This document shows, piece by piece, positions 2 through 158 of a stretch of DNA of 342 nucleotides (its first letter is position 1; each line of letters starts with the position of its first letter). The notes beneath the pieces were generated by a model. That model did no database searches, was not told the DNA's origin, and worked only from the letters and a program-made list of their open reading frames with translations. The stretch is from Escherichia coli (lineage in GTDB: Bacteria; Pseudomonadota; Gammaproteobacteria; Enterobacterales; Enterobacteriaceae). The translations under genes and the position numbers were made by a program. The stretch lies in the NCBI RefSeq assembly GCF_003334385.1, contig NZ_QOWN01000197.1; one strand, 5' to 3'.

Positions 2-127
2 GAGCAGGCGATGTTTACCAAAGGTCTGGAAATTCATGTCAGACAGCGCACGATGAAAAAAGAGATTGAAGCGCTGGATGATGCGGAAGCTATACTGGCG
101 TATAAAATCGGTATCACAGACGGCTGA
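2..127 (+). CDS. 3' end of a protein-coding gene, 5'-partial (alternatively a 38-codon small ORF if the in-frame ATG at 11-13 is the true start); product not recognised
   Basis: Frame 2 is the only + frame open across 2-127 (frame 1 stops at TGA 67-69, frame 3 at TGA 54-56). Translation: EQA-MFTKGLEIHVRQRTMKKEIEALDDAEAILAYKIGITDG, then tandem in-frame stops TGA(125-127) TAA(128-130). Codon choice looks enterobacterial (CTG, GCG, GAA, AAA, ATT common). There is no convincing Shine-Dalgarno in the 10 nt before ATG 11 (agagcaggcg), so the frame most likely enters from upstream of the window. Confidence 0.55.
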   Translation, partial: EQAMFTKGLEIHVRQRTMKKEIEALDDAEAILAYKIGITDG

Positions 128-128
128 T

Positions 129-158
129 AAAAAAGAGAGGGGCAAGCCATAGCCCCTT
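129..158 (-). terminator. Weaker terminator-like hairpin in minus-strand orientation (second or backup terminator, or 3' end of a short minus-strand transcript)
   Basis: Stem 137-143 (gaggggc) pairing with 152-158 (gcccctt), including one G:U pair, 8-nt loop aagccata. An alternative register is gcaag 142-146 with cttgc 156-160. On the minus strand the stem is followed by TC then TTTTTT (complement of + strand A-tract 129-134). No T-tract follows it on the + strand. Confidence 0.45.

Follow-up and report, generated by a model that had tools for sequence, protein, structure and literature searches.

Among the closest described counterparts of the gene reported here are tail-fibre chaperones of Alteromonas phages. 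Protein gp27 of phage V22 is needed for a functional gp26 fibre and is absent from the mature complex; on size-exclusion chromatography it came off the mature fibre completely, and the fibre was still functional (PMC7289586). Together with gp9 of phage A5, it was modelled as a helical body with beta-hairpins, and both proteins were proposed to act as transient "caps", trimeric and similar to intramolecular chaperone domains (PMC10579305). In Campylobacter CJIE1, the gene 3′ of the H-fibre carries the domain DUF4376 as well, and its co-expression is required for fibre function (PMC7882524).

Here, we analysed a 342-nt stretch of DNA, called the window throughout; positions refer to it unless a locus or a protein is named. 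Positions 2-127 belong to a 192-codon late gene in an Eib-carrying lambdoid E. coli prophage and form its 3′ end. Taken as a whole, this part of the window is best explained as the end of a gene for a two-module tail-fibre chaperone, a reading to which we assign a probability of roughly 80%.

Identity of the gene and its genomic context

Searches against complete E. coli genomes matched the window to chromosomal prophage DNA in 27 of them, with E. coli JNEC-KY176 as the best match (99.7% identical). Eight phage records matched at 85-88% identity, prophage P-EibA among them, and the plasmid collection searched with the window gave no match. Translation of the + strand from base 2 yields EQAMFTKGLEIHVRQRTMKKEIEALDDAEAILAYKIGITDG, followed by a stop. 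The initial annotation had preferred the end of a larger gene and proposed an inspection of the upstream sequence for the real start. This start was indeed found further 5′: in JNEC-KY176 the frame extends for 151 more codons upstream, giving a CDS of 192 codons. The features of this locus (L001) are, in gene order:

Upstream, in order: genes for minor tail protein L, a C40 peptidase, a tail assembly protein and gpJ
L001:6030-7529: fibre gene, "prophage tail fiber N-terminal domain", directly before the WP_016232115.1 gene
L001:7549-8127, + strand: full CDS (579 nt, 192 aa), WP_016232115.1, "DUF4376 domain-containing protein"
L001:8001-8342: the window
Window 2-124, + strand: last 41 codons (residues 152-192) of the 192-aa DUF4376 gene, a putative tail-fibre chaperone/assembly gene
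After the CDS: intergenic region of about 680 nt, then the gene for a YadA-C-terminal (Eib-like) adhesin
After the adhesin gene: a small ORF, an S6 autotransporter gene, then the bacterial genes ykgJ and potB

In P-EibA (AF151091), the counterpart of the window gene is ORF-191A, which lies in the same gene layout, and the copy in phage PhiR5_2 carries the annotation "tail fiber assembly protein". The gene has been annotated before, belongs to a known, widespread phage chaperone family and as such is nothing new.

Two further observations were made at this locus. The prophage cargo at L001:8809-14887 consists of the Eib-like adhesin (412 aa), a 156-aa ORF and a 1335-aa S6-family autotransporter peptidase (EaaA-like); its order is the same as in P-EibA, and it adjoins the potB/ykgJ chromosomal junction. 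Just 3′ of the gene start, A7 in JNEC-KY176 (L001:7545-7565) is replaced by A6 in PhiR5_2 (L003:4546-4566). This difference moves the usable start codon by 4 nt, so that the protein begins with MWKKISN in JNEC-KY176 vs MNVEKISN in PhiR5_2, with the protein body in frame.

Family membership and predicted structure

A Pfam scan of the 192-aa protein placed DUF4376 (PF14301) at residues 72-181 (model positions 2-101 of 106, E 4.9e-20, 72.4 bits); at an independent E≤10 it reported only this domain, and Caudo_TAP (PF02413) was not matched. PHROG 1141 (category tail) spans residues 2-191 at E 2.7e-78, whereas NCBIfam holds no model for the protein. Even the 41-aa window peptide alone matched PHROGs 15942, 11571, 7703 and 1141 at E 5e-16 to 2e-12. 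The peptide, regarded in the initial annotation as a C-terminus of some 40 residues that could not be assigned, thus falls in an annotated family with experimentally characterised members, which removes its novelty. The assignment also removes the idea of an unannotated small protein, although its importance is small.

The family is large. A collection of 5.8 billion proteins contained 387 relatives at E≤1e-5; almost all named ones were "DUF4376 domain-containing protein" entries from E. coli, Salmonella and Klebsiella, and a few relatives also carried Caudo_TAP. An exhaustive search of 50%-identity representatives yielded 1248 homologues at E≤1e-3. Compared by hhalign, a profile of 101 homologues matched V22 gp27 with a probability of 97.4% and E 1.1e-11 over 107 columns, corresponding to query residues 69-187 and taking in most of the window peptide; the pairwise BLASTP match between the two proteins was weak (E 1e-4 over 53 residues). 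In addition, L012:521-1267 and the proteins P0100, P0113 and P0118 join a lambda-Tfa-like (Caudo_TAP) N-terminal domain to a DUF4376 C-terminal module. As judged from their sequences, these apparent fusions show module shuffling between both chaperone families.

An AlphaFold2 model of the 192-aa protein, built on the alignment of 101 sequences, reached a mean pLDDT of 97.1 and a pTM of 0.77. Its last eight residues are non-helical, and confidence drops only at the final two. The predicted elements and their positions in the window are:

Residues 2-10, 17-24 and 31-36: strands of the N-terminal part, followed by a helix at 42-52
Residues 69-89, 92-103, 105-119 and 128-138: helix, hairpin, helix and small strands of the middle part
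Residues 141-174 and 179-184: long helix and short helix of the C-terminal part, followed by a loose end
Window 2-70, + strand: second half of the long helix 141-174
Window 23-58, + strand: motif residues 159-170 (GLEIHVRQRTMK), the family's most conserved C-terminal motif
Window 83-100, + strand: short terminal helix 179-184
Window 104-124, + strand: variable C-terminal tail, KIGITDG here, KVGMADR or RVGWAQE in other alleles

The motif G-x-x-I-H-x-R-Q-R-x-M-K (G159 to K170) is 80-95% conserved across the 101 diverse sequences (G 83%, I 83%, H 81%, R 82%, Q 87%, R 86%, M 80%, K 95%), and K170 is among only four alignment positions that are at least 90% conserved. Residue 189 (window 113-115) deviates from the family: it is Ile here and Met in P-EibA-type alleles, but a near-invariant Trp in the family (93% of 101), where it sits in a Gly-Trp motif. 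Other E. coli prophage copies retain VGW.

Among predicted viral structures (BFVD), 45 fold matches were found at E≤0.001, mostly to DUF4376 or tail-chaperone proteins from myo-, sipho-, podo- and crAss-like phages. PDB sequence searches, with the single protein and with the 101-sequence profile, returned nothing meaningful and hence no sequence-related solved structure; the solved Peptidase_S74 intramolecular chaperone domains (K1F, T5 pb1) matched neither in sequence nor in fold.

Coding frame and translation signals

The + strand frame at 2-124, closed by TGA and TAA, is present as it was first described. It is free of internal stops in all 11 intact homologous CDSs, which come from different prophages and phages. 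One further copy, at L009:568-1246 in E. coli O170:H18, bears the annotation of a frameshifted pseudogene and lies in a decayed prophage remnant adjoining ompW/yciE. The codon-substitution pattern, proposed earlier as a check in orthologues, was taken from more diverged copies, since the alleles that are 85-99% identical over the window hold too few coding substitutions. It revealed purifying selection in the window frame: pN ranged from 0.06 to 0.31 and pS from 0.13 to 0.98 in the window part, dN/dS was 0.15-0.41 where computable, with similar values in the rest of the domain, and variable sites were distributed over the three codon positions as 19/13/34. The PHROG matches of the 41-residue peptide, the 11 stop-free CDSs and a pN well below pS put the coding call far beyond chance.

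Three other features of this region required closer consideration:

Window 11-13, + strand: ATG, internal Met155 codon, no start
Window 125-127, + strand: TGA stop, position kept in close alleles
Window 128-130, + strand: TAA, second in-frame stop, absent from the 88%-identical alleles and best read as chance

An ORF of 38 codons does run from the ATG at 11-13 to the stop and could in principle encode an independent small protein, which the initial annotation had held out as an alternative while pointing to the missing Shine-Dalgarno sequence (SD). That observation was correct: bases 1-10 (agagcaggcg) are without a GGAG, AGGA or GAGG core. In the matching genome the frame stays open for 151 codons upstream, one Pfam domain and one predicted helix (141-174) cross the ATG, and a pN/pS comparison found equal selection on either side of it. 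We looked for an own start signal and for conservation beginning at this codon and found neither, which leaves a separate 38-aa protein extremely improbable. Still less credit is due to a gene on the minus strand, where antisense ORFs exist at window 34-150 (38 aa) and L001:7864-8145 (93 aa). One antisense frame is stop-free in most orthologues, but an open antisense frame is the usual shadow of a coding region; the antisense translation lacks a family match, in contrast to the + frame with its Pfam and PHROG matches and over 1000 homologues, and the L012 copy has a stop in the antisense frame. These ORFs were rejected as shadow frames. The tandem stop raises a similar question at the other end of the peptide. 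TGA is the leakiest stop codon of E. coli, and a TAA placed directly after it might be a selected fail-safe against readthrough. However, the 88%-identical alleles read ...GAC AGG TGA AAA at the same site, and the TAA falls inside a recombinant patch (see below). From the composition of the 3′ flank, the probability that any one triplet there is a stop comes to ~0.06, so that about 6% of genes would have a second stop by chance, and only one of the nine CDSs of the locus, the window gene, has a tandem stop. Being unconserved and within chance, it was rejected as a selected feature, and we consider the fail-safe very unlikely.

Module co-variation and proposed function

All intact copies that we looked at follow a tail or tail-fibre gene, with at most a single small ORF separating the two. 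The order of fibre gene and DUF4376 gene was found in JNEC-KY176 and nine further loci, two of which have one small ORF in between. For nine loci, a small sample, we compared the last 110 residues of the fibre with the modules of the chaperone. Similarity of the fibre C-terminus followed the N-terminal module in all four related cases: in PhiR5_2, for instance, 100 of 110 fibre residues and 69 of 70 residues of the N-terminal module are identical, and L011 scored 113 for the fibre and 189 for the module. Where the N-terminal module was unrelated, similarity of the fibre tip was absent as well (5/5 loci), while the DUF4376 module there was 65-92% identical. Fibre C-termini thus co-vary with the N-terminal module, and the DUF4376 module does not. 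This split into a fibre-specific N-terminal and a generic C-terminal module is of minor practical use for swaps of fibres and chaperones in engineered phages or pyocins.

By analogy with the described systems, the 192-aa protein would act as a chaperone of the fibre encoded just upstream. Its N-terminal module (about residues 1-60, three beta-strands and a helix) may dock specifically on the tip of this fibre. The DUF4376 module (about residues 70-190) is predicted as a helical body that bears two small beta-hairpins, and would be a generic scaffold common to chaperones for unrelated fibres. Of this generic module, the window holds the last third, namely the second half of its longest helix with IHxRQRxMK, the short helix and the loose tail. 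The helical body probably has an oligomerising role: the scaffold may trimerise and keep three fibre chains aligned as their folding proceeds from the C-terminus. Once the fibre has folded, the chaperone would either leave or cap the tip transiently.

The protein might instead be a structural part of the distal tail fibre and remain on the virion as an adhesin or tip adaptor, as gp38 of T2/T6 or Mu Tfa do, in which case the window would encode the end of an anchoring domain. PHROGs 1141, 11571 and 1807 are labelled "tail fiber protein", and the N-terminal 60 residues are about 50% identical to "tail fiber component" genes of PB1-like Pseudomonas phages; the transient "cap" role proposed for the chaperones of A5 and V22 (PMC10579305) also fits such a part. 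These database labels are automatic, however, and V22 gp27 separates fully from the mature, functional fibre (PMC7289586). Furthermore, a conserved module that is independent of the fibre type is expected of a folding scaffold, unlike a receptor-binding tip. We therefore regard a structural component as distinctly unlikely and favour the chaperone.

Downstream hairpins and a mosaic patch

The stops run straight into the A-tract of a hairpin, as the initial annotation had stated: an A-run follows them, and the hairpin lies at 138-157. It is the first of three G+C-rich hairpins within 150 bp (138-157, 220-241 and 264-285), each with an A-run before it on the + strand. Given the T-runs on the minus strand, they resemble intrinsic terminators for minus-strand transcription only; every annotated neighbour is encoded on the + strand. 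Three terminator-like sites were found vs 0.3 expected in shuffles, with fold z-scores from -2.0 to -4.3. The stems are largely conserved in the alleles that are 85-88% identical, and the loops vary. Rfam gave no match, either in the window or anywhere in the 1-kb intergenic region.

Compared with the 88%-identical alleles (2015C-3121, PhiR5_2), the window contains a sharply bounded mosaic patch at 105-245. Its flanks are nearly identical to these alleles (104/104 at 1-104 and 96/97 at 246-342), whereas the patch itself is about 69% identical (100 matches, 35 mismatches, 10 gaps). The gene's final seven codons, both stops and hairpins 1-2 all fall inside it. This suggests a recombination exchange at the junction of the late operon and the eib region. 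A speculative and rather unlikely reading is that such an exchange altered the final seven chaperone codons, with loss of the Gly-Trp motif (Trp to Ile/Met), and that this change, together with two of the three minus-strand hairpins, marks the boundary of the late operon and eib as a specialised junction or insulator. If true, the chaperone would tolerate or exploit an altered C-terminal tip.

Comparison with described systems

Among the Eib prophages, ORF-191A of P-EibA and the other DUF4376 genes share with the window gene the order of fibre, gene, about 680 nt and eib. The C-terminal 120 residues of ORF-191A are closely similar (110/119 identical). In contrast, the N-terminal module (18/46 identical) and the fibre tip (20/77) differ, as do the seven C-terminal residues and the sequence around the stop.

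As in V22 gp27 and A5 gp9, a C-terminal DUF4376 module is encoded directly 3′ of a fibre gene, and predicted N-terminal beta-strands precede a helical body with a beta-hairpin (PMC10579305). The length is similar too, 195 aa in gp27 vs 192 aa in the E. coli protein. Identity amounts to only 22%, however, and neither the N-terminal module nor the cognate fibre is related. V22 and A5 are marine lytic phages, whereas the window gene belongs to a temperate lambdoid prophage of an enterobacterial host and would share their function by analogy.

With lambda Tfa and Mu TfaMu (Caudo_TAP, PF02413), the gene has in common its small size and its position right after an stf-like fibre gene, as well as the modular logic of a two-domain chaperone, and some relatives fuse Caudo_TAP to DUF4376. 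As the 192-aa protein itself does not match Caudo_TAP, it would be a functional analogue rather than a member of that family. Finally, the Peptidase_S74 domains of the K1F endosialidase and T5 pb1 resemble the AlphaFold models of DUF4376 chaperones in their trimeric helical core and beta-hairpin 'tentacles' (PMC10579305).
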